This document shows, one piece after another, positions 981 through 53,305 of a stretch of 64,000 bases of DNA (positions are counted from its first letter, which is position 1; every line of letters begins with the position of its first letter). The position numbers and the translations under genes were made by a program. This DNA is from an uncultured Bacilli bacterium (GTDB lineage: Bacteria > Bacillota_I > Bacilli_A > RF39 > UBA660), in contig CANQYE010000002.1 of assembly GCA_947627995.1 (NCBI GenBank), positions 8,444 to 72,443 of the forward strand, in the 5' to 3' direction. Below the pieces are notes generated by a model, which had not been told where the DNA came from, did no database searches, and worked only from the letters and a program-made list of their open reading frames with translations.

Positions 981-1016
981 GTATTTCCTCCAAAACTACT
1001 TAAATTATACTAAAAA

Positions 1017-1841: not shown

Positions 1842-1846
1842 GTTTT

Positions 1847-3793
1847 TTAAGTACTACTTATATCTTCAATCCTATAGCAGAGAGCTTTTTTTATACCAGT
1901 ATATCGATCACTAAATTTAGTATAATTCGTTGCTGGATCCCACATATATATTTCTTTATCTGTTGTTCGATAATTATCAATCGCAACCCAGTGTTGATTA
2001 ACTTTATCCCCTCTTACACTTGCAACAATATAACATCCTTCATTTATCATCTCTTTAATACGCTTAGCATCCAATAGCACACCGAATTGTTCACTACGGC
2101 TAAGACTTTCATTATAAATAAAATTTGGTGCTACATATTTTGCATAGCTATAATCTTCTAATACTCCACCTTCTCCAAAAGAGCCTTTTTTTCTCATCAA
2201 CGCTATAGCTGTTTTAGGTGTCAAATCTCCCTCTAACTCGCTGCTCAGTTGCGCTTTACTATTTGCAATTTGGATTGTAATCGAAGTTGCCAAACATCCT
2301 TGATTTCCTATTGTACATTTGCTACATGTTCCAACTTTATCATTTGCCCACTTAGAATCATCTTGTCGCCAATATTGAAAATCACCTAAATTTATAGTTT
2401 GATCATTTACAGCATGATCACAAGAAAATGTCCTAACAGTACTTGCATTATCGCCATAAACATTTTTTAATATTTCTGTATAATCTTTCCCATTATCAGC
2501 TAAATTAATGAATTGATTTTGTGTATCAGATTTAAACCCAACATGAGGTATATTATTGCTATTATCAAGCATTACTTTACCAACAACTTCCATTGCAATA
2601 TTTGTATAAGTGTCAATAACTTCTTGACTTAAAGCATTTTTCCAAATAGTAGCTCCAGAAGTGTTAGAATTTATTTCTGGTGAGTATAAAGAAACATCGC
2701 CTCTATTAAAACGATATATATCTTTTGTATAATCCCAATATACTTGGTCATTTTCACAAGCCCGCATTCGAATTATACCGTCGTTTTTATTTAATCCATA
2801 AAAACAATTACTACTATCACCTGGACACATACTTTCATTTCTTGTTAATGTAAAATTTCTAATAGCAATAAGCTGGGCCTTTAAAGCTTCTTCATCCACA
2901 GTACCAATCTCCGCTAAAGCAACACCTAGTATATATTTTTCTAAAGGTATTTGTTCTAAAACTTTATAATTATCTTTCGTTGCATCACAATTAACTAATT
3001 CTACTTGCAAATTGTCATAATCGTAGCCATTAATATTATAAGAACATGCTGCTCCGGCTACCCCTGAGCTTCCCGACGTATTATCTTCTGAAGTATTTGA
3101 AGCCTCTCCACCTAAAGCAGGAATTATTAAAATAAGAGCTACAACAAAACAAGCCACTCCTAAGATTAAAAATAAAGGATGTCTAATTATTTTTATAATA
3201 TAAGATTTAAATTTAATAACTTTATTAATTTGTTTTTTTACATTATGATTTTCCTTTGATTTATTGGATTTCTTAGTATCCGAATCTCCATTTTTATCAT
3301 TTATACTTTCATTTGAAGCGATTTTATTTGATAGACTATGATTACTATTGCTATTTTTAGAACTAGCATTTTTTTGACTTAAATATTCTTTTTTTTCTAA
3401 ATTATCAGTATTTGGTTTAATGACTGAACTTTTAGAATTTATTATTTTACTTTTTAAGTTATTGCTGGGTGACAATATATTTTTACTATTTTTAGCAGCT
3501 TTATCTGCTATTGGTTTTGGTACCCCAACTGATTGTAATAAAGTTGATGAGATTTTTTTTTCTGCATCATTAGTAGTACTGGCTTTATATTTGTCATCAT
3601 TTAGAGTATTAACTTTTTTAAAATTATTATCATTTCTAACCCCATTATGTGACGAATTATAAAGCTCATCTGCTTCTGGACTATAAAATTCATTTTCTAA
3701 ATTTTTATATTTATTTTCACTGCCAAAAGAAGACACATTATGTCCTCCTTCATTATTATTGGAACTATGTTTATATTTTTCTTCTTCTGGCAT
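1847..3793 (-). CDS. T4SS-associated cell-wall hydrolase (VirB1/PrgK/CwlT functional analog), membrane-anchored
   Basis: 648 aa. Low-complexity N-terminus, one TM helix (LFLILGVACFVVALILIIPAL), a large extracellular domain, and a C-terminal Cys..His papain-like/CHAP-like segment (EGCYIV...NQHWVAID). Directly downstream of VirB4, as in Gram-positive conjugation loci. Confidence 0.45.
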   Translation of the reverse strand: MPEEEKYKHSSNNNEGGHNVSSFGSENKYKNLENEFYSPEADELYNSSHNGVRNDNNFKKVNTLNDDKYKASTTNDAEKKISSTLLQSVGVPKPIADKAAKNSKNILSPSNNLKSKIINSKSSVIKPNTDNLEKKEYLSQKNASSKNSNSNHSLSNKIASNESINDKNGDSDTKKSNKSKENHNVKKQINKVIKFKSYIIKIIRHPLFLILGVACFVVALILIIPALGGEASNTSEDNTSGSSGVAGAACSYNINGYDYDNLQVELVNCDATKDNYKVLEQIPLEKYILGVALAEIGTVDEEALKAQLIAIRNFTLTRNESMCPGDSSNCFYGLNKNDGIIRMRACENDQVYWDYTKDIYRFNRGDVSLYSPEINSNTSGATIWKNALSQEVIDTYTNIAMEVVGKVMLDNSNNIPHVGFKSDTQNQFINLADNGKDYTEILKNVYGDNASTVRTFSCDHAVNDQTINLGDFQYWRQDDSKWANDKVGTCSKCTIGNQGCLATSITIQIANSKAQLSSELEGDLTPKTAIALMRKKGSFGEGGVLEDYSYAKYVAPNFIYNESLSRSEQFGVLLDAKRIKEMINEGCYIVASVRGDKVNQHWVAIDNYRTTDKEIYMWDPATNYTKFSDRYTGIKKALCYRIEDISST

Positions 3794-3812
3794 ACATCAT
3801 CACCTATAATTT

Positions 3813-5597
3813 CTAAAATCCACCACCAGATCCAAAAGAATCTAATTCTTCTTGAGTTGCAATTACATTGATGCGCATACGTCTACTTCCACAGACAAAT
3901 AAGGCTTCTCCTTGATTAAAGTATTTAATATTTTCTTGTTCATTCTCATTTAAATCAATTAATCTCGCTAAATCGTCTATAGCTTGTTTACGCAAGCCCA
4001 TTACTAAGTAATAAGAAGCATTATCAAATATTGCTTTTCCATGTGTAATAATATTTGGAGCAGCAAAGTCAGTTGGTTGTTGAGTTATTATAATTGTTCC
4101 TGTATTGTATTTACGACTACGTCTTTGAATTTGTGCTAAAAATTCTGCACCTAATTCATTTCTACTGCTAAGTAAAACATGAGCTTCATCAACACACATT
4201 ATTGTATTAACATCTTTATCCAAACATAAACCCCAAGCATATTTCAAAATATTAAAAAATAATGCATTTCTAATTGATTCATCAGAATTCATAAGTTCTT
4301 TTATATTAAAAACAATAAAATCACTATTAAACTTAATTGTAGTATGGCCATTGAAATAGTATCTTAATTCTTTAATAAGAGGTCGAACTTTAAGTTCCAA
4401 TCTCTCCATTACATCTTTCTCTTGAGAATGTTCAGGCATAGATAACAATCTACCTTTAATAGTTGCATACACATCATCAAAAGTTGGATAATCTTCTGAT
4501 TTAAACTTTCTAAAGTCAGTATCAAAATCAATTCTATATCTTTTATATGTATCTTGAACAACCTCACTAAATAATGTTAAAACATCATCTTCAATACTTG
4601 GGGAATAATATTTCATAAAAGCTTTTAATTGTTGAATTGTTCTTGTTAAAACAGTATAGCCTAATCCTTGAGCCATTTCTTCTTCATCCGCATCTACAAC
4701 CACTTCTAAAGGATTTATCATTCCAAAGTCTCCACCTTTACCAAGGTCTATTGAATCTCCTCCAAGTATTCTTGTCATTTCCTTTAATTCATCCTCAGGA
4801 TCAATGGCTACAATTTTATATCCATTGCGAATATGACTACGAAGTAATAATTTAGCTACCGTAGATTTACCACTACCAGAAGTTCCTAATATTATCATGT
4901 TAGCATTATTTCTATTATGCTCTTTTTTAATTTGATATAAAAATTGATTGAATAATATTACCCCACCAGAAAAATCTTGACCAAGCAATGTAGATAAGCC
5001 CGGATCTTTGATGCTATCAAAAACAAAAGGATACATTGCAGCTAAAGTAACTGAAGGAATAGGTGTTCCAATACGTTCTTCGATATCTTGCTTTGGAAAA
5101 ATAGGAATAATAGATTTTAAGACTTTTTCTTGTTCAAACATTAAAGAGGTTGCACGTATTCCCATTGCATCAAGATAGCTTCTAACTTGCATTTTCTTTA
5201 AATCAAGTTCTTCTTTGGAATCAGCAGTAATCATTAAGTGCATTTGAAAATCAAATATTCGAGCTTGAGTAGAAGCTAACATTTGAACAAATTGTTCTAA
5301 TGATTCGTAATCTTGACGTATTCTTTCTTGAATTGTTATATCTCTTTCATTTTGGTACTTTTGCTTTAAATCAGCAATTTCTTTATTAATCATTCTTGAT
5401 AAAGATGAAAATGCAATAGGTATATGTTTAATAACCATTTTAACACCAGATATACTAGTGACATTAGATAAATAACCATGACTAATATATTTTGGATAGT
5501 TAATAACTGAAAGTATAGTAGCATGTTTATCACTTATTATAAAATCACTTGTTTTAAATTCTATGCCCTTAGGAGCAATTTCACTTTTTAATTTCAT
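3813..5597 (-). CDS. VirB4/TrbE/PrgJ-family conjugal transfer ATPase (C-terminal ATPase part)
   Basis: 594 aa. Walker A 'ILGTSGSGKST', Walker B 'IMCVDEAHVLL' and an FtsK/VirB4-like DUF87 architecture. The start overlaps the stop of the upstream ORF as ATGA. Confidence 0.7.
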   Translation of the reverse strand: MKLKSEIAPKGIEFKTSDFIISDKHATILSVINYPKYISHGYLSNVTSISGVKMVIKHIPIAFSSLSRMINKEIADLKQKYQNERDITIQERIRQDYESLEQFVQMLASTQARIFDFQMHLMITADSKEELDLKKMQVRSYLDAMGIRATSLMFEQEKVLKSIIPIFPKQDIEERIGTPIPSVTLAAMYPFVFDSIKDPGLSTLLGQDFSGGVILFNQFLYQIKKEHNRNNANMIILGTSGSGKSTVAKLLLRSHIRNGYKIVAIDPEDELKEMTRILGGDSIDLGKGGDFGMINPLEVVVDADEEEMAQGLGYTVLTRTIQQLKAFMKYYSPSIEDDVLTLFSEVVQDTYKRYRIDFDTDFRKFKSEDYPTFDDVYATIKGRLLSMPEHSQEKDVMERLELKVRPLIKELRYYFNGHTTIKFNSDFIVFNIKELMNSDESIRNALFFNILKYAWGLCLDKDVNTIMCVDEAHVLLSSRNELGAEFLAQIQRRSRKYNTGTIIITQQPTDFAAPNIITHGKAIFDNASYYLVMGLRKQAIDDLARLIDLNENEQENIKYFNQGEALFVCGSRRMRINVIATQEELDSFGSGGGF

Positions 5598-6163
5598 TGA
5601 CCAATCACCGTCCCAAAATTAGAACTTACACTTCCATTAAAGAAGTTGTCTAAAAGCATACGCATATCATTATTTGAAACTTGAGAAGAATTTAATCCAC
5701 AAGCTGCTAAATTACTAATAAGATTTTGAATACGTTTTTGAATAATTTCCATCCTCTTTTCTTTAAAAAGAATAAAATATTCAGTATCGACTACATTTAC
5801 TTGTGTACTCATAAATGTATTAGCTTTTTCAATATCTTGCATTATAATTTTACGAATAGGATTGCTAGTAGTATTATTATATAATACTTGCAATTGTGAT
5901 AAGTAAACATTGATATCTACTGGTCGATCAGCTACAATAAGCCAAAACTCATAATCAATTGAATTATAAAAATTACGAAAATTAAATATTACATTATTTT
6001 CAGTAGATTGATCTAAGATAAAAATATTTTTTGGTTCAACTTTGATTCCTGTTACATATTCGCCGCTATCTAATTGAATCATTCCATTCATTATTCCTTT
6101 AACCGGAACCCAGTCTTCACTATATTTAGAACTATTTGTTTTCTTTTTCTTCATAACTAGCAC
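5594..6163 (-). CDS. VirB4 N-terminal-domain-like protein (split VirB4?)
   Basis: 189 aa with no TM helix. Its stop overlaps the ATG of the VirB4 ATPase (ATGA). The two together total about 783 aa, the length of full-size Gram-positive VirB4s (PrgJ/TcpF). Confidence 0.4.
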   Translation of the reverse strand: MLVMKKKKTNSSKYSEDWVPVKGIMNGMIQLDSGEYVTGIKVEPKNIFILDQSTENNVIFNFRNFYNSIDYEFWLIVADRPVDINVYLSQLQVLYNNTTSNPIRKIIMQDIEKANTFMSTQVNVVDTEYFILFKEKRMEIIQKRIQNLISNLAACGLNSSQVSNNDMRMLLDNFFNGSVSSNFGTVIGQ

Positions 6164-6449
6164 ACCAACCTTTCCATATATATTTTCTTCTCGTCGTTAA
6201 ATACTTATATATAATAAATATTAAATTCATAATATTATGATAATTAGGTACAGGAAGAACTAAAAATCCTGTAATTAATGCTGGAGACAATATTCCTAAC
6301 ATAACCCAAATATTGTTATTTCCGGCAAAGAATAATAATATCATTGTCGTTACGCATCCTAAACCAAAAACTAGCAAATCAATTGGCCTAAAAAAACTTA
6401 ATATTAATTGTGACTTTTTCGAGTTTGCTGGAATTAAATAATTATTCAC
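6132..6449 (-). CDS. VirB3/PrgI-like small membrane protein
   Basis: 105 aa, two-TM hairpin, immediately upstream of VirB4 in the canonical VirB3-VirB4 order. Confidence 0.45.
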   Translation of the reverse strand: MNNYLIPANSKKSQLILSFFRPIDLLVFGLGCVTTMILLFFAGNNNIWVMLGILSPALITGFLVLPVPNYHNIMNLIFIIYKYLTTRRKYIWKGWCASYEEKENK

Positions 6450-6466
6450 CCTTTTATTCCTCCTTA

Positions 6467-9034
6467 TTATTTTTTATCTAAGCTTGATGAGCTACTACCC
6501 GAAGTTGGAGCTGACCCTCCTCCAGAACTTATTTTTGACATTGCTTCTGTCCACTTTTCATATTGTTTAACCATATTTTCTTCTTCTTCTGCTTTTCCAG
6601 TAGCTCTTTGTCTACTCATGGCTTTAAATAAATCGCTATTTTCATCCACAATAGATCCATACTCTTTTCTAATTTCATCTCTGTCTTCTTTAATACCATC
6701 AGCATATTTTTTAGAAATTCTTTCAATCTCTGAATCAACTTTTATATTAATTGCATCTCTATCATTAAGTTGATTTCGAACCTTTTGCAATTCACTAACA
6801 AGTTCATTATGACGTCTTTTATTCTCAACATATTCCATCAATTCTGGATTATTTTTTGCAAAAATAGGATCATTTTTCATGCTATCAATTTTTTCACGGG
6901 CATAAGCTTTTTCATAATTTGTACGAGTAGCATCAAATTGTTCAGGTGTAATATAACCACGTTCTAATTGATTAGCGGCCATATCATTAGCTCTTCTAAT
7001 AACATCAGGGTCATTCATAAAGTTTCTAAACATTTCAGATCCTTCAAAATTATTAATATTAGCATTTAAATTATCTATTTCAGGTTGAATTTGATTTTCC
7101 CTTAATCGAACTTCATTTTCAAGTGCATTCATTATTTTAGATCTAACTGTGTTTTCCAATGTCATATACTCTGCCTGTTTTTTCCACGCTGCAATTACTT
7201 TATCATTATTAAGGATTGCGTCATTTTTAATAGATTTATTTGTTTTGCCTGCTTCTTCTTGCATTTTACTTGCAAAAGATTGACCACCAAAAATACCTGG
7301 ACTTCCTTTATAATCATGTGGATTATAAGAATGATAAAGCTTATCTTTTTGTTTTTTAAATTGTCTTCCGCCACCGGCAGTTCCAGCCAAAAATCCACTT
7401 CTTAATCCTTTTTTGAAATCGCCATTTCTTAAACCAACTAATCCTCCGCCTAAAGCTCCTGAAACACCACCTTCTACAGCATCTATTCCTTTTCTTATTG
7501 GTTTTCCAACAAATGCAGCTTCAGATAATTTATCTTTAATTCCTTTAAAGCTTAGGCTTTCTAATCCAAACATTGTAGAAATTAATTTAGGTGCTTGTTT
7601 AATAAATGTTAATATTCCTAGAATAACTAAAACTCTAGCGAAACTTAATACACCAAATGAAGCTGAACCAACATAATTTGTACTAAATAAGTCACTATTT
7701 GTTCCCCAAACACTTAAATCTGGCAACATAATAATTATATATATTCCAAAAAATACTATAGCTATTTTTAAAAACACTTCAACAAATGTTGTAATAGTAG
7801 ATTTTAACCAGTTATTAAAAATTGTTTCTTTGCCCGGTATTAATCTAGTTAAAATTGGAATTGGAGCAATAATTTGATAAAATGCTATTTTAACACTTCT
7901 TACAGCCATATCTATAGCAAATGATATAAGAATATAAACAAGATATAATCCGGCAATTAGCGCCATAAACCAATGGAATTCCATCATCCCAGATTGAATC
8001 ACTGGAGCAAATCTATTATAGATAGAAAAATCTTGATTGATTAACGCATATGTATATGCCGTATCCAATGAATAAAAATTAGAATTTGTAAAATAGTCTT
8101 CTATTCCATTTCCAGCAATGAACCCAGCGACTGTTCCACCTGCTGTTAGCAAACCTGCGACTCCCAACGAAATTCCACCAGTTGGAACAGCAAGTGCTAT
8201 CGCTATAACAGTTCCAACTCCACCAACAATAGTTCCGAACCATGCCCCCCAACCAGTTGACGGTTCTTTAATCCTATAAAAGCATTGATTTTTATTTTGA
8301 GCATAGTCAGGAAGCATTTCTCCTTCTACTATTTCAAAGCTATCATCTGAAAAATCTTCTCCATCACCCGCATAATAGTAACATTTGGTATCATCATCCA
8401 TATCATCATAAGTTGCTGTTTGTAATCCATTTTCGTCAACTTCCCCTACATCTGCAGTCAAACCATATGTATCATTAAAAAAACTTGAAAAAACGTCTAA
8501 AGCCATTTTAGTGCCAGCTATTGATAAAACATTGTTAGCCGTAGTTTCGCTATTATTTTCTTCATCTAATTCTCCGGTAATTGCATTAGCTGTATCGGCA
8601 ATTTCAGAGTAATCATGACCACCTAAAACAATCTTCCCTATAATATTTCCTTCCAAAATTGCATTTTGAAAATCATACATGTAAGAAAAAACTGTATTAA
8701 ACAATGCTAACATTATAATAGTGGTTATTAGTTTTTTAAAAATATCAGAAGTGTTTTTTAATGCATCATTAGGATTTACAATAGCTTTTATAATAACAAA
8801 CGCAACAACAAATAAAGCGATTATCCCTATTATCGTTTCTATTCTTCTACAAAAAGTTTGAATTTGTTCATTGTTTAAAACTCGCGCAGAACATATAGCT
8901 AAAAAAACTTGATATATCCAATCAATTATACCAAATATTCCACGTACTAGCCACATTACTATATTTATGAATGCAATACCAATAGCATCACCAATTAAGC
9001 CTAATGTACTAATCATATTAAACACTCCTTGCAT
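6467..9034 (-). CDS. VirB6/TrbL/PrgH-TcpH-like polytopic membrane protein with long coiled-coil C-terminal extension
   Basis: 855 aa. At least 6 TM helices in the N-terminal half, a glycine-rich GxxG stretch, then a hydrophilic C-terminal half with heptad-like repeats and an S-rich tail. Sits upstream of VirB3/VirB4. Confidence 0.45.
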   Translation of the reverse strand: MQGVFNMISTLGLIGDAIGIAFINIVMWLVRGIFGIIDWIYQVFLAICSARVLNNEQIQTFCRRIETIIGIIALFVVAFVIIKAIVNPNDALKNTSDIFKKLITTIIMLALFNTVFSYMYDFQNAILEGNIIGKIVLGGHDYSEIADTANAITGELDEENNSETTANNVLSIAGTKMALDVFSSFFNDTYGLTADVGEVDENGLQTATYDDMDDDTKCYYYAGDGEDFSDDSFEIVEGEMLPDYAQNKNQCFYRIKEPSTGWGAWFGTIVGGVGTVIAIALAVPTGGISLGVAGLLTAGGTVAGFIAGNGIEDYFTNSNFYSLDTAYTYALINQDFSIYNRFAPVIQSGMMEFHWFMALIAGLYLVYILISFAIDMAVRSVKIAFYQIIAPIPILTRLIPGKETIFNNWLKSTITTFVEVFLKIAIVFFGIYIIIMLPDLSVWGTNSDLFSTNYVGSASFGVLSFARVLVILGILTFIKQAPKLISTMFGLESLSFKGIKDKLSEAAFVGKPIRKGIDAVEGGVSGALGGGLVGLRNGDFKKGLRSGFLAGTAGGGRQFKKQKDKLYHSYNPHDYKGSPGIFGGQSFASKMQEEAGKTNKSIKNDAILNNDKVIAAWKKQAEYMTLENTVRSKIMNALENEVRLRENQIQPEIDNLNANINNFEGSEMFRNFMNDPDVIRRANDMAANQLERGYITPEQFDATRTNYEKAYAREKIDSMKNDPIFAKNNPELMEYVENKRRHNELVSELQKVRNQLNDRDAINIKVDSEIERISKKYADGIKEDRDEIRKEYGSIVDENSDLFKAMSRQRATGKAEEEENMVKQYEKWTEAMSKISSGGGSAPTSGSSSSSLDKK

Positions 9035-9119
9035 TATAATAATTATAACATAAAAAAATTTAAATAAAATAGAAAAATTAATTAAAAAACATTATAATAA
9101 AAATTATAATATCTTTGTT

Positions 9120-10445
9120 TTAAAAAACACCACAAAATGGACTTGTTTGTCCTATTATATTAAGTAAAAATTGTAATACCATCGGCAACAAAAATAATGA
9201 TATAGCTAATATTAATCTTATCATAAAATTTTTACTTTCTTTTTTTAATGCATCATTATCTTGAGATAAAAGTGCCATTAAAAATCCCACTGCACTTAAT
9301 ACTATAACTAATATTGGAGCTGCAATTTTAAAAATATCAAATATTTTATTTAAAATATAAGCTACGGATCTTGACCCATCAGAATTTACAGATTTATTTA
9401 CATCGCCAAATAACCCTTCACACGATTCATCATATGCAAAATCAGCATTACCAGCTTTATGATTAGATTTTATAGTGAATTTTTCTGCCAATGATTCTAA
9501 ATTATTATTAACTTCTTTCTTAGATTCTGCAAGTGTATCTTTTAAGTTTTCTTTTTCATTTTTAGTCATGTTATTACTAGTATCAATCTTTTTATCACAT
9601 AGATCTTTATTTTTTTCTACATCCTGTTGTAAGCTTTCTATTTCATTTAAAAAAGTTGTGGATATTTTTTTGTTTTTGCTAAGAATGGTTTGAAATAAAG
9701 TATTATTTATATTATAACTATTAGTAAATGAAGATAATAATTTATCTGTATTAGATACTTCTTGCATTAGATTATTAAAACTTTTACAAAATACACTAGC
9801 ACCTTTTTCTAATACACTACTCAAATTTTTTTCAATAAAATTATTAAAAAATTCCTTAATATTATCCGCAACATCATCTTCATAATCATAATGTAACTGG
9901 TCATTATTTTCTTTAGAACGTTTATAACACCAGCTTCCTTCAAAATTTGCTGATTGTTGTATGTATGTTAAATTTTTGCATTCATCTTGATTTTCTGCTA
10001 TACACACAATTGGAGTGTCAGTAGAAATTCTTGCAAATTTTGGACACTGATAACTCTTAAGCTTTTTCTGAGCGCTTTCACTTATGAAATACGTACTACT
10101 TATTTCATTTTTAAAATTTAAATTATCAGATTTAGCATTACCAGTACCATAAGTAAAAGTATTCCACTCGGCACTTATTGCACCATCTTTATTTAAAAAT
10201 AAACTGACTGTCCCACAACGTGCAGATTCGTTTCCAGGACATGTCATTGAACTTACAATACCAACATCAGGTGTCCATATTGTTCTATATTCGCACATTT
10301 TTATACAATCACCATTTTTTTCACAATCTCTACTAATATATTTACATGATGTTGATGTAGTATCTGCATTAACTACATTAATATTAATTAACATTATAAT
10401 TAATGAAAAAAATATAAGACCAATATATTTTAATCTACTTTTCAT
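9120..10445 (-). CDS. Secreted cysteine-rich protein with C-terminal two-TM anchor (unknown function; T4SS operon member)
   Basis: 441 aa. Signal peptide (MKSRLKYIGLIFFSLIIMLININVVNA), more than 14 Cys in the first 180 aa, a coiled-coil middle and two C-terminal TM helices. Confidence 0.35.
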   Translation of the reverse strand: MKSRLKYIGLIFFSLIIMLININVVNADTTSTSCKYISRDCEKNGDCIKMCEYRTIWTPDVGIVSSMTCPGNESARCGTVSLFLNKDGAISAEWNTFTYGTGNAKSDNLNFKNEISSTYFISESAQKKLKSYQCPKFARISTDTPIVCIAENQDECKNLTYIQQSANFEGSWCYKRSKENNDQLHYDYEDDVADNIKEFFNNFIEKNLSSVLEKGASVFCKSFNNLMQEVSNTDKLLSSFTNSYNINNTLFQTILSKNKKISTTFLNEIESLQQDVEKNKDLCDKKIDTSNNMTKNEKENLKDTLAESKKEVNNNLESLAEKFTIKSNHKAGNADFAYDESCEGLFGDVNKSVNSDGSRSVAYILNKIFDIFKIAAPILVIVLSAVGFLMALLSQDNDALKKESKNFMIRLILAISLFLLPMVLQFLLNIIGQTSPFCGVF

Positions 10446-10453
10446 AAAATCAC

Positions 10454-29690: not shown

Positions 29691-29981
29691 TTATTCTACT
29701 ATTCTAATTATTTTTTCGCCATCCTTAGAAAAAAGATAATTTTCTTTTGCATATTTGGCAATATATTCAGGATCTTCAAGTTTATTTGCTTCAGCTTCTA
29801 AACTTTCCTCTTTTTGAATTAATTCGTGATACTCACTTGTCAATTTTTTAGTTTGCTTAATATTATCAAAGATTTGTGTCCAATAATTGAATAGTGATAT
29901 CGATAAAAAAGTTACTAAACTAAATAAAATAACAAAAACAAAAACCATACGCCGTTTTGCTTTTTTGCTAATGCTTTTCAT
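29691..29981 (-). CDS. divIC: Septum formation initiator (DivIC/FtsB family)
   Basis: 96 aa. N-terminal TM helix, coiled coil 'ESLEAEANKLEDPEYI', and the yabP-yabQ-divIC order as in B. subtilis. Confidence 0.55.
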   Translation of the reverse strand: MKSISKKAKRRMVFVFVILFSLVTFLSISLFNYWTQIFDNIKQTKKLTSEYHELIQKEESLEAEANKLEDPEYIAKYAKENYLFSKDGEKIIRIVE

Positions 29982-30007
29982 AATATCACCTACTATTAAT
30001 TAGTATA

Positions 30008-30322
30008 TCATTTTGATTTTTTTTTCGCAATAGATAGCTTTAATTTGACATTTTTTATTAACACTTTTACTTTTTTATATGAAAGCAAATAACCAATAAT
30101 CACCATAAAAATAAAGTAAATATGGAATATTCCTCCATTAATTTTTAAAATTAATAACATATAAAGTAAAACTATGTCAATTATAAAAATAAGATTAAAA
30201 AATATTTTATAAAAAACATTTTTACTAAAAATATATTTATAGTTCAAATTAGTTAATATGGAAAAAAATATACCAAATATAAAAGATGATATTAAAGATA
30301 AAAGCTGTATATATGTATGCAT
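30008..30322 (-). CDS. yabQ: Spore cortex biosynthesis protein YabQ-like membrane protein
   Basis: 104 aa, 3 TM helices, 'INGGIFHIYF' resembling the YabQ N-G-x-R-x-Y motif. Immediately downstream of yabP. Confidence 0.45.
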   Translation of the reverse strand: MHTYIQLLSLISSFIFGIFFSILTNLNYKYIFSKNVFYKIFFNLIFIIDIVLLYMLLILKINGGIFHIYFIFMVIIGYLLSYKKVKVLIKNVKLKLSIAKKKSK

Positions 30323-30609
30323 TATTTAAATAGTTTTGCAAAGAATCCGTTCTCTTTATTTTTTTGCTTCTCATCCATATATGTAAAAGAATTTATTGTT
30401 CCCTTAATTGACACATTCCCATCGTGTGTATCTAATTTTACAATTTCTAGACCTTCCCCTTTAAGTAAAATTGTTCCCATATTACTATCCATTAAAAATT
30501 CTTCATTATCAAAACTAACTATTTTCTTTACTCCTGTAATAATTATATTTTTACGCTCATTAATATTTACTTGATGATTAAAACCACTAGCTTCTATAAT
30601 TTTATCCAT
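30322..30609 (-). CDS. yabP: Sporulation protein YabP
   Basis: 95 aa 'HQVNINERKNIIITGVKKIVSFD...LLKGEGLEIVKLD...VSIKG', the YabP family. Confidence 0.75.
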   Translation of the reverse strand: MDKIIEASGFNHQVNINERKNIIITGVKKIVSFDNEEFLMDSNMGTILLKGEGLEIVKLDTHDGNVSIKGTINSFTYMDEKQKNKENGFFAKLFK

Positions 30610-30681
30610 ATTCGCCTCCTAAACAATTATATGCGCAAGATAAAATTTTAGAATTTAAAAAGTAAAATATTTCTATTTTAC

Positions 30682-30969
30682 TTATTCTTCAGTATTTTCA
30701 GTTTCAATTTTATTAAACTCTTCAATAATTTTTTCTTCAAACATCTTACGAACATCTGGATTAATAGGATGAGCTATGTCTCTATAATCACCACTGGCTG
30801 TTTTTCTACTTGGCATAGCGATAAATAAACCATTATCACCTTCAATAATTCTAATATCATGAACAGCAAATGAGTCGTCTAGCAAAACTGATGCAATCCC
30901 TTTCATGCGAGATCCTTCTTTTTCAATTTTACGTACATTAACTGATGTTATTTGCATATTAACACTCAC
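30682..30969 (-). CDS. spoVG: Septation protein SpoVG
   Basis: 95 aa '[52 protein letters not shown]', highly conserved SpoVG. Confidence 0.9.
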
Positions 30970-31033
30970 TTTCTAAAGTTTTATCAAACTTAATTATAGT
31001 TTAATTCATTTAAATTAAAAAATCAATAGAAAC

Positions 31034-31246
31034 TTATAAATATTCAATTGTTACTTCCTTAGTTATAACATCAGCATAACTAAAGCTTTTATTTTCGTTA
31101 GAAACTTGAATTGTAAAAATATAGGGATAAATTGAAGCTATTGTTCCAATGTACTCACTATTTTTATTTCGCATACCATAAACTCTTATTCTCACTTTCC
31201 TTCCAATATTTTTACTTATTTCATCACGAACTGAATTTATATTCAC
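31034..31246 (-). CDS. veg: Veg protein (biofilm/sporulation-associated small protein)
   Basis: 70 aa 'IRDEISKNIGRKVRIRVYGMRNK...GTIASIYPYIFTI', the Veg family. Sits between spoVG and ksgA, as in B. subtilis. Confidence 0.8.
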   Translation of the reverse strand: MNINSVRDEISKNIGRKVRIRVYGMRNKNSEYIGTIASIYPYIFTIQVSNENKSFSYADVITKEVTIEYL

Positions 31247-31256
31247 AAAATCCCCC

Positions 31257-32021
31257 TTATCTTGGAAAACCTACATACATCAACCCATTGCTTTTTATTC
31301 CACCCATTCCATTACTACCATATTTTGTTTTACTTAATATATCTATTAAATCTATTTCTTTGTTTCTTTCGGTTAATGCAATATTAACCGCAATTATTGC
31401 AGGGTCCAATGCATGAATATTTATTCTTTTAGGACTTGAAGCAAAATTTGCACCTGCCTTTATTAATTCTTCATAATTACTCTGACATGCTCCTGCTATA
31501 ATAACTAATTTTTCATGAGATTTTTCATAATTTCGAGCTACCTTAACCGCTTTTATAAAATTTATAGAATTTTTATAGTTATGTATATTTTTTTCATCGC
31601 CCTTTTTATGATAATATGCATCATGCCCTGTAATTATTACTATATCAGGCTGATAATCTTTTAATAATCTTTCCATATTCATGGCTAGCTCAGACTCATT
31701 AATTTTTTTCCCAACTGCCATAACTCCTGCTTCTTGATAATATTTCAAACATCTTTTCAAATAGTCATTATCACCATCAAGATGAAGAATTCTTGCAGGC
31801 ATATAAAAGTAATCTCCACGATCTAGTGGTATATCTGGTTTTACATCTACGTGTTTGGTCATATTATCTACTTTTATTAAATCATTTTCCGGACTATCTG
31901 CATATAATCTTACATCAAATCCTTTTAAATAATATATATTATCTCTAATATTAATAACTTTAAAAATTGTATCATTATTATAACTATTTCTTGTAACCAA
32001 ATCCCCTTTATTAATTCGCAT
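31257..32021 (-). CDS. yabG: Sporulation-specific protease YabG (peptidase U57)
   Basis: 254 aa '...DVRLYADSPENDL...ILHLDGDNDYLKRCL...PDIVIITGHD', the YabG signature. Adjacent to ksgA. Confidence 0.7.
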   Translation of the reverse strand: MRINKGDLVTRNSYNNDTIFKVINIRDNIYYLKGFDVRLYADSPENDLIKVDNMTKHVDVKPDIPLDRGDYFYMPARILHLDGDNDYLKRCLKYYQEAGVMAVGKKINESELAMNMERLLKDYQPDIVIITGHDAYYHKKGDEKNIHNYKNSINFIKAVKVARNYEKSHEKLVIIAGACQSNYEELIKAGANFASSPKRINIHALDPAIIAVNIALTERNKEIDLIDILSKTKYGSNGMGGIKSNGLMYVGFPR

Positions 32022-32057
32022 AAAATCACCTATTTTATTTTATGCGAAATTTATAAG

Positions 32058-32843
32058 TTAGCTCAAAATATTAGCTATTTTAACAAATATTTCTAAACTA
32101 ATCTCCTCCGCACGTGCATTCTCATTTAAATTATTAGATTTTAATACTTCTAAAACTTTACTAAAATCATAATTTTTTAAATTGTTTTTTAAAGTTTTTC
32201 TTTTTTGGGCAAAAGCATCTTTTATTAATTCAAAAAACAACTTTTCGTTTTTTAAAAAAAGCTTTTCTTTTTTGGGAACTAATTTGATTACTGCACTATC
32301 AACTTTTGGTTCTGGCTTAAAATTTTTTCTTGATACAGTAAATAATTTTTCTGTATTAAAATAATAGTTTAAATAAACGGTAAAAGATCCATATGTTTTA
32401 TTATTAACCGATGAGGTCAGACGATTAGCAACTTCTTCTTGTACCATTAATACTATTTCCTTAATAGGTATAGTCATATTCATAATTTTTTTTATAATAG
32501 GTGTAGTAATATAATAAGGGATATTTGCAATAAATGAAACATTAGAAAACTTAGTTAAATCTATATCCTTTTCTAACTCTGAATTTAAAAAATCTTGGTA
32601 AATTATAGTAGTTTTTTCATTTTCTAACCTATTTAAAAATAATTTAGCTTCTTTATCTATTTCATAACAAATAATTTGATTATTTAAGCTTTGTAACTTT
32701 TTAGTTAAAATTCCTGCGCCTGGCCCTATTTCAACTATTAAAGTATTATTATCTACATTACAATTATTTATAATTTTACTTATTATTTCTTCATTCGTTA
32801 TAAAATTTTGTCCATAATATTTTTTAAATTTAAATTTTTCCAT
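32058..32843 (-). CDS. rsmA: 16S rRNA (adenine1518/1519-N6)-dimethyltransferase RsmA/KsgA
   Basis: 261 aa 'KKYYGQNFI...EIGPGAGILT', SAM MTase motifs. Confidence 0.85.
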   Translation of the reverse strand: MEKFKFKKYYGQNFITNEEIISKIINNCNVDNNTLIVEIGPGAGILTKKLQSLNNQIICYEIDKEAKLFLNRLENEKTTIIYQDFLNSELEKDIDLTKFSNVSFIANIPYYITTPIIKKIMNMTIPIKEIVLMVQEEVANRLTSSVNNKTYGSFTVYLNYYFNTEKLFTVSRKNFKPEPKVDSAVIKLVPKKEKLFLKNEKLFFELIKDAFAQKRKTLKNNLKNYDFSKVLEVLKSNNLNENARAEEISLEIFVKIANILS

Positions 32844-32873
32844 AATTATGTAAAAAAGTGAGCTTCCTCACTT

Positions 32874-33452
32874 TTATTCCCATCCTTTTCTAATTACATT
32901 ATATGTTATTTTACTTCTACCAATCCTATTATAAGCAGTTGCATTACTATCTACTAATAAATCAATTGTATTACCAGATACACCTCTGTCTAAAACAATT
33001 GCTACAACGGGTTCAGATGAAATGCTATCTTTTTCAAAAGTTATTATTGAACCGCAAGGAAGATTGTTAGAAGAAGCTACTATCCTAACATTTCCATAAG
33101 TTTCGTCATAATAAAACACATTACCATTTGATAAATCTAATGAGCTTGTACAAGCAAGCTTTCCACTACATTTAGGACAATTATAAACATATCCCGTTAA
33201 ATTTCCACTTAAAGTAGTTATTATATTATCCAATTTTTTGTTCTTTTCTTCAATCATTTGCTGAGCATTTTGATTATCAATATTATCAACGAATGCAGCC
33301 ATTGCACCTAAATCTAAAGATTTATTTAAATTTTCGTTTTCAACTTTATTTTCTAAAGTCTTCGTTCCAACTTCTAAACAACATATAGCTAATAAAATTA
33401 TTAACACTCGACTGCCTTTAATAATCCATTTTGCTATTTTCATTATGTTCAC
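32874..33452 (-). CDS. 3D-domain protein (YabE/YuiC-like, MltA-type fold), N-anchored
   Basis: 192 aa. Signal/TM segment, a Cys-rich segment 'CPKCSGKLACTS', and a C-terminal 3D-like domain with 'DRGVSGNTIDLLVDSNATAYNRIG'. Position matches B. subtilis yabE between tatD and ksgA. Confidence 0.45.
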   Translation of the reverse strand: MNIMKIAKWIIKGSRVLIILLAICCLEVGTKTLENKVENENLNKSLDLGAMAAFVDNIDNQNAQQMIEEKNKKLDNIITTLSGNLTGYVYNCPKCSGKLACTSSLDLSNGNVFYYDETYGNVRIVASSNNLPCGSIITFEKDSISSEPVVAIVLDRGVSGNTIDLLVDSNATAYNRIGRSKITYNVIRKGWE

Positions 33453-33488
33453 CTCAATTTTGTAATATTTATTTTACCATAATTATAG

Positions 33489-34247
33489 TTAAATGTCAAA
33501 AACTGACTTAATATTTGCATTGGTAAATTTTGATAATTGATCAACATCTATTTTCTGATTTTCGCAAATGAATTTAACAATATTCATTATATAAGCTGGC
33601 TCATTTCTTTGACCTCTATAAGGGACTGGAGTTAAGTAAGGAGAGTCAGTTTCTAAAATTATATTTTTAATATCTATTTCATCTAATATATTTATAAGCT
33701 TACAATTTTTAAAAGTTATTACTCCACTTATACCTAATATAAAACCTTTTTTAATATATTCATTGGCTAGTTCTAAACTGCCTGAAAAAGAATGGATAAC
33801 TCCTTTAATATTATATTTTTTTATAATATCAAGAACATCCATCCCAGCATCTCGGCTATGGATAACAACTGGTAGATTGAGTTTTTCAGCTAATGAAAGC
33901 TGCAAATTAAAATATTTTTTTTGAATTTCTTTATTAGTATTTTCATAATGATAGTCTAATCCTATTTCACCAATTCCTAAAATCTTTGGATTATCTAACA
34001 TTTCTTGCAAATCCAATATATCTTTTTCCGTAATATCATATGTCTCCGTCGGATGATAACCAATTACTCCATAAAATTCATCAAATTCATTAACAAGCTG
34101 CAATACTTCTTTATTAGTTTTTTTATTATACCCACTTAATATTATTCTATTTATATTATTTTCCTTAGCATTCTGAATTATTTGTTCAATATTTTCATAG
34201 TCACAATGAAAAATATGAGCATGAGTGTCTGTAAACATTATAATCAC
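33489..34247 (-). CDS. tatD: TatD family metal-dependent DNase/hydrolase
   Basis: 252 aa 'FTDTHAHI', with conserved His/Glu/Asp positions of the TIM-barrel TatD family. Confidence 0.8.
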   Translation of the reverse strand: MIIMFTDTHAHIFHCDYENIEQIIQNAKENNINRIILSGYNKKTNKEVLQLVNEFDEFYGVIGYHPTETYDITEKDILDLQEMLDNPKILGIGEIGLDYHYENTNKEIQKKYFNLQLSLAEKLNLPVVIHSRDAGMDVLDIIKKYNIKGVIHSFSGSLELANEYIKKGFILGISGVITFKNCKLINILDEIDIKNIILETDSPYLTPVPYRGQRNEPAYIMNIVKFICENQKIDVDQLSKFTNANIKSVFDI

Positions 34248-34289
34248 CTTATTTTAATTATAAATTAAAATAAATAGTATTTCTACTAT

Positions 34290-34817
34290 TTATTCCAAAG
34301 TTATTTGATTACTTATTAAAAGCGCTGCAAATTTTATTAATAAAATACTAGATTGATCAATTTTTTTATCACTAATAAATATAATAAGCCCAATACTATC
34401 CCCATTACTAATAATAGGGTACATTAAATTATAGCCGCTTAACACAATATTTTCGGATATAACAAAATTTTCACTAAATTCAGACATTCTTATTTTTCTT
34501 TCTTCGATTATTTCCATCATATTATTAGTTAAAATTTCTTTTTTATCCGAAGTTAGTCCATCAGATTGAGAAATAATGTGTTCTCTATCCGTCACTAATA
34601 CTTTATTTCCAGTTAAACTTGATAATATATTAACAATTTTATTAGCAAAATTTATTGAATCTTCCATTAAAGAAAATTTTTTTAATATTATTGAATGATT
34701 TTCTATAAAAATTTCAATACTTTCCCCATCTCTAATTTTTAAATTTCTTCTTATTTCTTTTGGAATCACAATTCTTCCTAATTCATCAATTCTCCTAATT
34801 ACTCCGGTAGATTTCAT
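34290..34817 (-). CDS. spoVT: Stage V sporulation protein T (AbrB-type N-domain + GAF-like domain)
   Basis: 175 aa 'GVIRRIDELGRIVIPKEIRRNLKIRDGESIEIF', an AbrB/MazE swapped-hairpin, followed by a C-terminal sensor domain. Next to mfd, as in B. subtilis. Confidence 0.7.
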   Translation of the reverse strand: MKSTGVIRRIDELGRIVIPKEIRRNLKIRDGESIEIFIENHSIILKKFSLMEDSINFANKIVNILSSLTGNKVLVTDREHIISQSDGLTSDKKEILTNNMMEIIEERKIRMSEFSENFVISENIVLSGYNLMYPIISNGDSIGLIIFISDKKIDQSSILLIKFAALLISNQITLE

Positions 34818-44099: not shown

Positions 44100-44119
44100 T
44101 ATTTTAATTCCTTTCAAAT

Positions 44120-44196
44120 AAAAAGTGCACACAAATAGTGATTGTTATGGCTGCTGTATTCCTACTCTGACCAGGTTTCAATATATTTGTTGCACA
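44120..44196 (-). ncRNA. ffs: Probable signal recognition particle RNA (small 4.5S-type ffs), unannotated
   Basis: The minus strand reads GUGCAACAAAUAUAUUGAAACCUGGUCAGAGUAGGAAUACAGCAGCCAUAACAAUCACUAUUUGUGUGCAC. It contains ACCUGGUCAG...GGAA tetraloop...CAGCAGCCA, matching the conserved domain IV (E. coli ACCAGGUCAGGUCCGGAAGGAAGCAGCCA). A 12-bp closing helix and a U-run follow. A sigma-A promoter sits at the correct distance. Confidence 0.55.
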
Positions 44197-44201
44197 ATTA
44201 A

Positions 44202-44229
44202 ATTATAACATACTAAAATTATTTTTCAA
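44202..44229 (-). promoter_or_regulatory. Sigma-A promoter of the ffs-like RNA (TTGAAA-N16-TGTTATAAT)
   Basis: Reverse strand has the -35 TTGAAA (44224-44229) and an extended -10 TGTTATAAT (44202-44210). The predicted TSS coincides with the 5' end of the RNA closing helix. Confidence 0.5.
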
Positions 44230-46770: not shown

Positions 46771-49784
<3,014 letters not shown>

Positions 49785-49800
49785 GCCTCTTTTACGTCAT

Positions 49801-49841
49801 ATAATAAAAATAATAGGTATGCTAGTACTCCTATACCTATT
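49801..49841 (-). terminator. Intrinsic terminator after comK
   Basis: The minus strand reads AAUAGGUAUAGGAGUACUAGCAUACCUAUU followed by AUUUUUAUUAU. Confidence 0.5.
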
Positions 49842-49880
49842 ATTAATTATATCACAAAAAATTAGTTTTTTAAATAAAAT

Positions 49881-50336
49881 TCATTTATTTTTTCGTTGTC
49901 TTAATACGGATTCTAATCTTGTTGCTCTTAATATTTGATTATCTAAAATACCATAAGAAATATTAAATTTTATTTTTTGATTGTTTTTAAATTCAACGAC
50001 CATTTTTTCATCTTCTTTATAATAATTTATAATATTTTTTAAACTAATCCAATTACATTTTACTAAACGATTTGAATGTGTAGGAAAAAATATTATTTCT
50101 TTTGTTTCTTCTATTATTATTGGAACCTTATGTGTTACTCCTATGAGATTATATGTTCCTTTTTGTCTTCCTTTTAAACTACTACCAAAATATTGGCAAC
50201 TATCTTCCATAATTTTATTAGCAGATTTATTTATTTCAAAAGTATTATTTAATTCATAAACCATGCTATTTTTTTCATCGATTGGAATTATTGCTAATGT
50301 TTCTTCATTTATTTCATAATCAACCAAAAAACCCAT
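49881..50336 (-). CDS. comK: Competence transcription factor ComK homolog
   Basis: 151 aa. 'CQYFGSSLKGRQKGTYNLIGVTHKVPIII...IFFPTHS...CNWISL...ISYGILDNQILRATRLES' aligns with B. subtilis ComK ('CRFFGSSYAGRKAGTYEVTKISHKPPIMV...LFPTLS...CGWISH...ISYNSFENQVYRTAWLRT'). Confidence 0.75.
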   Translation of the reverse strand: MGFLVDYEINEETLAIIPIDEKNSMVYELNNTFEINKSANKIMEDSCQYFGSSLKGRQKGTYNLIGVTHKVPIIIEETKEIIFFPTHSNRLVKCNWISLKNIINYYKEDEKMVVEFKNNQKIKFNISYGILDNQILRATRLESVLRQRKNK

Positions 50337-50348
50337 CCTCCTTTCAAA

Positions 50349-50380
50349 AAAAGTATAGTATTCTTATAACACTATACTTT
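50349..50380 (-). terminator. Hairpin downstream of dnaN (weak U-tract)
   Basis: AAAGTATAGT-N11-ACTATACTTT inverted repeat, immediately before the comK RBS GAAAGGAGG. Confidence 0.35.
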
Positions 50381-50401
50381 TAAAAAAATTGTCGAAAAAA
50401 A

Positions 50402-51523
50402 TTAATAAGTTTTAATTGGTAACAAAAGTTGAATTAAAGTTTCATCTTTAACAGATTTAATAATAATAGGTTTATTATCAGCATTCATCATAATTAAAAT
50501 ATCTTTATCTTTTATTGTTTTAAGTGCTTCTAACATATATTTAGCACTATATGAAATATCCATTGTTTCACTATTATTTTTATTAATATATAAAGTTTCT
50601 TCAACTTTTCCTATTTCTACTGAAAATGAACTTATTTTTAAACTTTTTTCTAATACTTCCATTTTAATTATATTACGATCTTTATTTTGAGTAAGTAATG
50701 CAGCTCTATCAATTGCATTATAAAATTCATCTTTTGTAGTATTAATAATAAAATTAAAATCTTTTGGAATTAAAGTAGAAGTATTTGGATAAGTTCCAGA
50801 CAACAAATTTGTTTGAAATAATATATTTTCATATTTAAATAATATTTTATTATTAAATATATGTAATTCTACTTTTTTATCATTATCACCTAAAATATGT
50901 TCAAATTCTATAATATTTTTACCTGGTATTACTATATTAACTTCCTCATTAATAGATTCTTTTAATGTTAATACTTTTTTCGCTAAACGATAAGAATCAG
51001 TAGCAACACATTCTAATATATTTCCATTTATTTTTATATTTATTCCAGTTAATAATGGTCTAGATTCTTGATTTGAAACAGCAAAGCTAGTTTGATTTAT
51101 TAATTGTTTTATTAACTTACTTTCAAGTATTATAGGCTTTTTACTTTCTTCTAATTTTAAATTTGGGTAATCTTTTACTTCTAAACAATTTAAATCATAA
51201 AAATTATTTTCGGTAAATATTCTAATTTTTATATTATCAATTAATTCTATATTAATTATATCATTAGGCATTTTTCTAATAATATCTAAAATATATTTGC
51301 TTTGTATTACACAATTTCCTTCTTTTTCAATATTTTTAATTTTTTTATTTTCAATTATTGCTTTAATTGTTAATTCAGAATCACTAGCTGTTAAAAATAA
51401 ACCTTCTTTTGTTAATTCAAGTTTTATACCATTTAATATAGGTATGATATTTTTAGTAGATATTGCCTTTAATACATAGTTTAAACTTTCTAATAAAATA
51501 TTTTTTTCAATTGTAAATTTCAT
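50402..51523 (-). CDS. dnaN: DNA polymerase III beta sliding clamp
   Basis: 373 aa, three-domain clamp length, follows dnaA. Confidence 0.85.
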   Translation of the reverse strand: MKFTIEKNILLESLNYVLKAISTKNIIPILNGIKLELTKEGLFLTASDSELTIKAIIENKKIKNIEKEGNCVIQSKYILDIIRKMPNDIINIELIDNIKIRIFTENNFYDLNCLEVKDYPNLKLEESKKPIILESKLIKQLINQTSFAVSNQESRPLLTGINIKINGNILECVATDSYRLAKKVLTLKESINEEVNIVIPGKNIIEFEHILGDNDKKVELHIFNNKILFKYENILFQTNLLSGTYPNTSTLIPKDFNFIINTTKDEFYNAIDRAALLTQNKDRNIIKMEVLEKSLKISSFSVEIGKVEETLYINKNNSETMDISYSAKYMLEALKTIKDKDILIMMNADNKPIIIKSVKDETLIQLLLPIKTY

Positions 51524-52993: not shown

Positions 52994-53305
52994 CTTATTT
53001 TCTAACTAATATAATTTTAACTTAATATTTTTTAAATTTAAAGTAAAAAATATTAGTGTTAGGATTTATTAACAAAAATTGTTAATAAATTTTTAAATTT
53101 AAATACTATAATAACTTAAATTTATCAAGTTATCAACATTTTCAACAAATTTAGTTAATTTAGTTTTCACAAATGTTAAAAAAAATATTAACAATTAACA
53201 AAAAATGTTAATATTATAAAACATATAAATTGATTAAAATCTATTTTCTTGACTTTTAATAACATATATAATATAATGAAAAAGCTTAACAAATGGAGGT
53301 GTATT
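52994..53305. promoter_or_regulatory. oriC: Probable oriC region: AT-rich dnaA-rpmH spacer with degenerate DnaA boxes
   Basis: TTATCAACA at 53130-53138 (one mismatch to TTATCCACA). Inverted pairs TTATTAACA/TGTTAATAA at 53067-53088 and ATATTAACA/TGTTAATAT at 53195-53214. Divergent rpmH and dnaA transcription. Confidence 0.55.

Follow-up and report, generated by a model that had tools for sequence, protein, structure and literature searches.

Between dnaN and recF, the 64,000-nucleotide stretch of contig CANQYE010000002.1 analysed here (the window), from an uncultured member of the Bacilli (RF39; UBA660), carries a comK-like gene that encodes a real and strongly conserved regulator of the ComK family, predicted to bind DNA. 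What is known of ComK comes almost wholly from Bacillus subtilis, with its C-terminal tail, its proteolysis through MecA/ClpCP/ComS and its self-activation. The window protein ends where that tail would begin, its gene has a conserved promoter of its own, and this promoter carries an apparent binding box for Spo0A. We favour, with modest confidence, an interpretation in which the gene encodes a Spo0A-induced ComK-core regulator that operates without a proteolytic gate, self-activation or tail cooperativity, and whose targets probably include genes that serve DNA uptake and recombination.

ComK family membership and the C-terminal tail

The protein matches the Pfam ComK family (PF06338) with E=4.7e-42 and 143.7 bits (cut-off 22.3), and the match is full-length, placing residues 6-149 of the 151-aa version on profile positions 3-151 of 152. 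B. subtilis ComK, whose reference sequence was confirmed by exact look-up as COMK_BACSU, shares 34% identity with the window protein in BLASTP over 149 aa (E=1e-30, B. subtilis residues 9-157), and hhalign of a profile of 28 family members against the same protein returned a probability of 99.7%. All three methods agree with the first-pass annotation of this DNA, which had called the product a ComK homolog on the strength of an alignment; a search with the family profile recovers ComK directly. Public annotation pipelines already label the homologs 'competence protein ComK', so family membership itself is not new. The AlphaFold model (predicted local distance difference test, pLDDT, 91.7) has a compact mixed fold of helices and beta strands that includes a long helix at the C-terminus, and no sequence relatives of the window protein were found in the PDB. 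The nearest solved folds identified by Foldseek are LytTR DNA-binding domains, those of Streptococcus pneumoniae ComE and Staphylococcus aureus AgrA, but the match is weak: probabilities of 0.96-0.99 are accompanied by E-values of 0.03-0.13 and template modelling scores of 0.4 (query) to 0.6 (target). Pfam gives no LytTR match in the window protein. The predicted model is consistent with a distant fold kinship that may exist between the ComK core and LytTR, the DNA-binding domains of two competence regulators.

The family is widespread and constrained. Metagenomes contain more than 1000 homologs of 146-177 aa, a homolog is encoded in 464 species-representative genomes, and 28 aligned sequences (about 60-70% identity) share 43 invariant columns. 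The median ratio of nonsynonymous to synonymous substitution rates (dN/dS) across 42 moderately diverged pairs is 0.10, indicating purifying selection.

The most conspicuous feature of the protein is its C-terminus. Both the BLASTP and the hhalign alignments end at B. subtilis ComK residue 157, and there is no counterpart of residues 158-192, only a short basic end, RQRKNK. In B. subtilis these residues form a disordered tail whose removal preserves dimer binding to a single box and abolishes cooperativity between two boxes, and loss of the 35 C-terminal residues kills ComK activity in vivo (bioRxiv 10.64898/2026.03.17.710445). A 25-residue C-terminal deletion stops comG activation while DNA binding stays, and ComK2 of Bacillus cereus, which is naturally tail-less with 22 aa missing, lowers comG expression (PMC3128618). 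The tail also contains the degron recognized by MecA/ClpC, FMLYPK...GERY (PMC8138137). Judged from its sequence, the window protein amounts to a naturally occurring 'ComK-delta', a folded core without the tail. An exhaustive search yielded 1006 ComK clusters at 50% identity; among the 150 nearest, a sample biased toward the query, most are 140-160 aa long, and in a rough neighbour-joining tree the 185-216-aa forms, including B. subtilis ComK, fall in one clade. These data suggest that the tail-less form of about 150 aa is very diverse.

The minus-strand open reading frame (ORF) of 151 aa at 49881..50336 is present as first described, but its start probably needs correction. The ATG at 50334-50336, which would lengthen the product by 3 residues, is touched by GGAGG (50337-50341) with zero spacing; from the TTG at 50325-50327 GGAGG is 9 nt away. 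The TTG-equivalent position is the start in all 27 aligned homologs, and P0001, a database protein with 99% identity to that of the window, is annotated with 148 aa. These observations together place the start most likely at the TTG at 50327, for a product of 148 aa. In the AlphaFold2 model of the 151-aa version pLDDT falls below 50 solely at residues 1-3. The strong ribosome-binding site described in the first-pass annotation is present as AAGGAGG, and related loci have a G-rich Shine-Dalgarno sequence (GGGGG or GGAGG) at the equivalent position. Mechanical ORF calls begin too early for both the comK-like gene and recF; the start of recF is likely the ATG at 49776-49778, with a Shine-Dalgarno AAGAGG at 49786-49791.

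Gene order and promoter architecture between dnaN and recF

Gene order was compared in the best 80 species genomes, all of them uncultured metagenome-assembled genomes from gut, rumen or caecum. Their labels read Bacilli, Mollicutes, Tenericutes, Erysipelotrichaceae, Candidatus Ventrenecus and, for some, Muribaculaceae; the last label is probably wrong, and for Candidatus Ventrenecus NCBI taxonomy gives no placement beyond Bacteria incertae sedis. The comK-like gene adjoins dnaN and/or recF on the same strand in 72 of the 80, with both flanks visible in 68 of those 72, and the order dnaA-dnaN-comK-recF-gyrB-gyrA recurs among relatives. In the other 8 genomes the gene lies at ligA-gatCAB. Because dnaN and recF also flank homologs at just 38-44% identity (P0147, P0181, P0196, P0190), the arrangement appears to be old and clade-wide. 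The comK-like protein, at 55-70% identity, is conserved about as well as DnaA and DnaN and better than RecF. The slot between dnaN and recF is occupied in Bacillus and many Firmicutes by yaaA/rlbA, a gene with an S4 domain. No S4-domain yaaA-like ORF occupies it in any related locus, and a Pfam scan at E<=1 gave no S4 match in the window product. GC skew changes sign at about 53 kb, which places the comK-like gene beside oriC, and both the skew and the neighbouring genes bear out the earlier description of a dnaN-recF slot next to the origin.

Some relatives have an extra gene between dnaN and comK, a ComEB-like dCMP deaminase in loci L034, L038 and L052 and predicted membrane proteins in L022, L055 and L067; in these loci the candidate Spo0A box described below remains directly upstream of comK. 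A link to the comE operon through the deaminase was considered and dropped. Apart from a few close relatives at 76-78% identity, all its named matches are Clostridia/Oscillospiraceae, which also account for most of its nearest matches (about 73% identity), an affinity that suggests lateral acquisition and not a comE link.

The first-pass annotation had placed the gene in an origin-proximal replication operon with terminators on either side. The terminators find support, as AT-rich hairpins followed by U-runs lie on both sides of the gene and are far more stable than shuffled sequences. A scanner that demands at least 3 G-C pairs missed both, and direct folding was therefore used. The upstream hairpin folds at -16.3 kcal/mol (z=-4.87), with 0 of 200 shuffles equally stable, and is likely a terminator for dnaN read-through. 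The loop and 5' arm of this hairpin hold the predicted comK -10 element, which would put the start of comK transcripts within the 3' arm and leave dnaN read-through as the only transcription that the hairpin could terminate. Most related loci have a separate hairpin and T-run just past dnaN. The operon assignment, in contrast, does not hold: the gene has a conserved promoter of its own and hairpins on both sides, and recF-gyrBA has a separate promoter. The comK-like gene is, on the evidence of these predicted signals, an independent single-gene transcription unit, insulated between two essential operons, and not a member of the replication operon.

Comparison of the dnaN-comK spacers of 71 non-redundant related loci reveals a shared layout in which a T-run is followed by TTCGACA, about 18 nt, TGnTAnnnT, CAATTTT, GGGGG or GGAGG, and the start codon. 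TTCGACA is exact in 47 of the 71 spacers and present with at most 1 mismatch in 59, no exact copy in the opposite orientation occurs in any of the 71, and its density of 4.5 per kb compares with 0.01-0.16 per kb in the neighbouring genes. The distance from box to start codon is 67±3 nt in most loci, and in 47 anchored loci TGnTAnnnT stands at a fixed distance from both. The modal distance from the box to the -10 hexamer is 21 nt, and extra copies at 11 or 31 nt build tandem arrays that repeat every 10 bp; series of two or three copies, each set 10 bp from the next, are found in L018, L021, L035, L055, L070, L072, L081, L083, L091 and L092, and the window spacer contains a single box. There is no -35 hexamer at the normal 17-nt spacing from the comK extended -10. 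Within the 64 kb the comK-like promoter is the only intergenic site that combines the box with an extended -10 in this architecture.

Promoters activated directly by phosphorylated Spo0A (Spo0A~P), such as spoIIG, have a 0A box over a displaced -35, some 21-22 bp from the -10, and Spo0A dimers bind boxes in tandem, spaced by about 10 bp. Read on the other strand, TTCGACA is TGTCGAA, the 0A-box core common to Bacillus and Clostridioides, whose Spo0A proteins read the box through its G and C positions (PMC3485338); those positions are conserved in the TTCGACA boxes of the related loci. From this architecture we infer binding by Spo0A. Direct binding of Spo0A~P to PcomK in B. subtilis (PMC3297582) provides a precedent for a connection between Spo0A and comK. 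Several of the 8 genomes with the gene at ligA-gatCAB likewise have 0A-like arrays in front of it, which indicates that the boxes belong to the gene and not to the origin region.

Proposed role and alternative explanations

In the mechanism we propose, a tail-less ComK core would be made from a single-gene unit situated beside oriC, between dnaA-dnaN and recF-gyrB-gyrA. Phosphorylated Spo0A, acting through the 0A box or boxes centred near -37/-40, would induce the gene as the cell enters stationary phase or sporulation. The protein would then bind A/T-rich sites as a dimer and control a downstream programme that, by homology, most plausibly includes genes that act in DNA uptake and recombination and resembles the K-state. 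Because the tail, the degron and the element for cooperativity between boxes are missing, and the 65-nt spacer contains no AT-box pair, the circuit would presumably deliver a simple graded Spo0A output, as opposed to the bistable, proteolysis-gated and self-activating switch of B. subtilis. A sporulation-associated cluster at 29691-34817 (minus strand), together with BofA in the related locus L001, suggests that this uncultured low-GC (about 25%) organism probably sporulates, and with sporulation genes in the window a Spo0A regulon is to be expected in it.

Several considerations weigh against this mechanism. TTCGACA equals the -35 hexamer TTGACA with one inserted base, so that the site might be read by a different factor or make an unusual contact with sigma-A, and the related loci are phylogenetically linked, with the result that locus counts overstate independence. 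The sequence covered, which comprises 64 kb from this genome and about 10 kb per relative, does not include spo0A, and no late competence gene appears in the 64 kb. In the window, AAAA-N5-TTTT boxes number 42 where 48.8 would be expected, and so show no enrichment. An activating role is further made uncertain by the behaviour of tail-less forms, as B. subtilis ComK without its tail binds without activating comG and ComK2 lowers comG expression.

The first-pass annotation saw in the gene a competence master regulator and hence a sign of natural transformation, a role that our analysis leaves plausible. In its fullest version this would be a canonical switch like that of B. subtilis, activating itself and the late com genes through paired AAAA-N5-TTTT boxes in a transformable lineage, possibly with an input from gene dosage at the origin. 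The clear homology to ComK and the names assigned by public pipelines agree with such a switch, and there is a precedent for the location: comCDE of S. pneumoniae is origin-proximal, and replication stress raises its gene dosage (PMC8394987). At one of the ligA-gatCAB loci (L073) the comK-like gene also adjoins a prepilin-type protein. This neighbour, of more than 589 aa (5754-7522, plus strand), has a prepilin-type N-terminal methylation motif and Y_Y_Y/PKD-like domains. The tail needed in B. subtilis for activation, cooperativity and MecA control is, however, missing. No late competence genes were found in the 64 kb among ORFs of at least 95 aa at 1-44.2 kb, the origin ORFs and ten unclear ORFs scanned with Pfam, and a six-frame search of the 64 kb for the prepilin motif G[FMY][TS][LM][ILVT]E returned nothing. 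The 65-nt dnaN-comK spacer contains no AAAA-N5-TTTT box, 21 of the 71 related spacers have a single one, mostly at the flanks of terminators, and the sole pair in the window (spacers of 8, 18 or 31) lies inside rsmA; with a genome of 25% GC, the scan for such K-boxes is uninformative. A canonical switch therefore seems unlikely to us.

Another possibility is that the ComK fold has been repurposed, so that a Spo0A-induced protein acts at oriC or at the promoter or leader of recF-gyrBA and, as sporulation begins, tunes replication initiation, the expression of gyrase or chromosome state instead of DNA uptake. This idea draws attention to the region downstream of comK. The hairpin beyond the comK stop codon encloses a conserved motif, TAGGTATAGGAGTAC (49825-49839); TAGGTAT is present in 56 of the 71 loci and ATAGGAGTA in 37, and in L007, L009, L019 and L033 the stem differs and the loop is similar. 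Right after the comK stop, the predicted promoter of recF-gyrB-gyrA follows the pattern TGnTAnAAT in 63 of the 71 loci, nearly always 65-69 nt from the recF start, and a promoter scan agrees. The hairpin may serve as terminator of comK, as 5' leader of recF-gyrBA, or in both capacities, and the comK-recF element as a whole could be a terminator over a promoter, a 5' leader with a stabiliser resembling a Shine-Dalgarno sequence, or a supercoiling-sensitive element of the gyrase promoter. A search of Rfam over 49700-50450, at the gathering threshold and at relaxed E-values, found nothing relevant.

A protein acting on its own surroundings would fit the retention of the slot from 70% down to 38% protein identity and a conservation that matches DnaA and DnaN and exceeds that of RecF. 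It would also give a context to the highly conserved and otherwise unexplained TAGGTATAGGAGTAC at the start of the next transcription unit, to the recurrence of TTCGACA in the dnaA-dnaN spacer (10 of 70 loci), and to the capacity of tail-less ComK forms to bind DNA without activating. The proposed binding to neighbouring DNA is nevertheless conjectural, the recF-leader motif is unlike the A/T boxes bound by ComK, the gene is conserved even where it lies between ligA and gatCAB in 8 species, and synteny may simply be frozen between essential operons. We consider this explanation, too, improbable. In a more radical variant there would be no competence role at all, with a Spo0A-triggered and origin-anchored protein coupling entry into sporulation to replication or supercoiling and the Bacillus switch being a later derivative that gained the tail; to this we assign a rather slim chance.

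Finally, in a very AT-rich genome with many spurious ORFs and a conjugation-like block elsewhere in the window, one might suspect that the ORF arose by chance, is a pseudogene in decay or came in recently with a mobile element, but the full-length profile match, the breadth of the family, the purifying selection and the confident structural model make this a negligible prospect, which the conservation data already refute. Searches of phage and plasmid collections returned only distant ComK proteins of Listeria, Staphylococcus and Bacillus at 25-35% identity, and a mobile-element origin was rejected.

Flanking features and comparison with known systems

The spacer between rpmH and dnaA and the switch in GC skew mark oriC, and rpmH, rnpA, yidC, jag and mnmE are divergently transcribed on its other side. 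In a scan of the whole window for the consensus DnaA box TTATCCACA with at most 1 mismatch, matches were only mildly over-represented (31 where 21.8 would be expected) and formed no clear cluster, the rpmH-dnaA spacer (52994-53305) included. The origin is accordingly assigned from GC skew and gene order, and a variant DnaA box may be in use in the clade. The TTCGACA copies in the dnaA-dnaN spacer have the same orientation as those upstream of comK and a density of 0.95 per kb, and Spo0A boxes are known within B. subtilis oriC. Beyond recF, whose stop codon overlaps the gyrB start, gyrB and gyrA continue on the same strand. The gap between tadA and gyrA contains a small signal recognition particle RNA (Rfam RF00169, 55.3 bits) at 44109-44204 on the minus strand. 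A block of large secreted or membrane proteins occupies about 1-14300, also on the minus strand, and by its gene content resembles a section of a conjugative type IV secretion element.

Coordinates of the comK-like gene, its regulatory signals and other features of the window
Feature	Position	Strand	Basis or remark
comK-like coding sequence	49881..50327	minus	148 aa from TTG start, stop codon included
Shine-Dalgarno AAGGAGG	50337..50343	minus	9 nt upstream of TTG; read from sequence
Extended -10 TGTTATAAG	50363..50371	minus	predicted promoter of the comK-like gene
TTCGACA box	50390..50396	minus	21 nt upstream of -10 hexamer; about -40 to -34 relative to predicted start
Upstream AT-rich hairpin	50346..50381	minus	arms 50368-50381 and 50349-50362, then U-run
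Downstream hairpin	49809..49844	minus	arms 49833-49844 and 49809-49820, then U-run; fold z=-3.0 to -3.9
Extended -10 TGATATAAT	49846..49854	minus	predicted promoter of recF-gyrB-gyrA, right after comK stop
dnaN (upstream neighbour)	50402..51523	minus	Pfam DNA_pol3_beta domains on identical gene in L001
recF (downstream neighbour)	48693..49778 (ORF to 49784)	minus	SMC_N/AAA_23 matches; 361 aa in L001
dnaA	51647..52993	minus	spacer to rpmH and GC-skew switch mark oriC
divIC-like	29691-29981	minus	
yabQ	30008-30322	minus	weak match
yabP	30322-30609	minus	
spoVG	30682-30969	minus	
yabG peptidase	31257-32021	minus	
spoVT	34290-34817	minus	
VirB4/TraG-type P-loop ATPase	3813-5597	minus	
648-aa protein with SpoIID-like domain	1847-3793	minus	

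We found no paper that links ComK with dnaN/recF, RF39 or RFN20, and none on the dnaN-comK-recF arrangement, on a comK promoter with a 0A box or on how common the tail-less form is. Within one large clade of uncultured Bacilli from the gut, a tail-less ComK is fixed at oriC and linked to apparent Spo0A boxes. If the proposed mechanism is correct, the clade would offer a simpler and perhaps ancestral ComK circuit for comparison with the Bacillus switch, a natural test of what the disordered tail contributes, and a testable prediction for gut bacteria that have never been cultured, on stationary-phase control and perhaps on DNA uptake as well. The placement beside the origin raises the question of replication-linked gene dosage, as for pneumococcal comCDE. 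The finding would be of greater interest should the protein turn out to work on the origin region, or should members of the clade prove transformable with Spo0A in direct control.

Comparison with B. subtilis ComK (192 aa) brings out both the kinship and the differences. The two proteins belong to the same Pfam family and share 34% identity across the folded core, and the promoter regions of both genes carry Spo0A boxes, established in B. subtilis (PMC3297582) and predicted here. The window protein, in contrast, is without the degron-bearing disordered tail (158-192). Its gene lies at oriC between dnaN and recF, whereas the B. subtilis gene is at a distant locus, and its promoter shows no K-box pair for self-activation and has the 0A box overlapping the -35 region of an extended -10 promoter. 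Relative to yaaA/rlbA of Bacillus, the chromosomal slot is the same, but the product has no S4 domain and no homology. With S. pneumoniae comCDE it shares the position of a competence-family regulator gene adjoining oriC, although the proteins are unrelated in sequence, ComE being a LytTR response regulator with only a weak Foldseek likeness (E 0.03-0.1). The nearest parallel in form is ComK2 of B. cereus, likewise a natural ComK without the C-terminal region. There the truncation is 22 aa and the short protein coexists with full-length ComK1, whereas the window form is truncated by about 35 aa, is the only ComK in the sequence covered and, unlike ComK2, characterises a radiation that is both very large and diverse.

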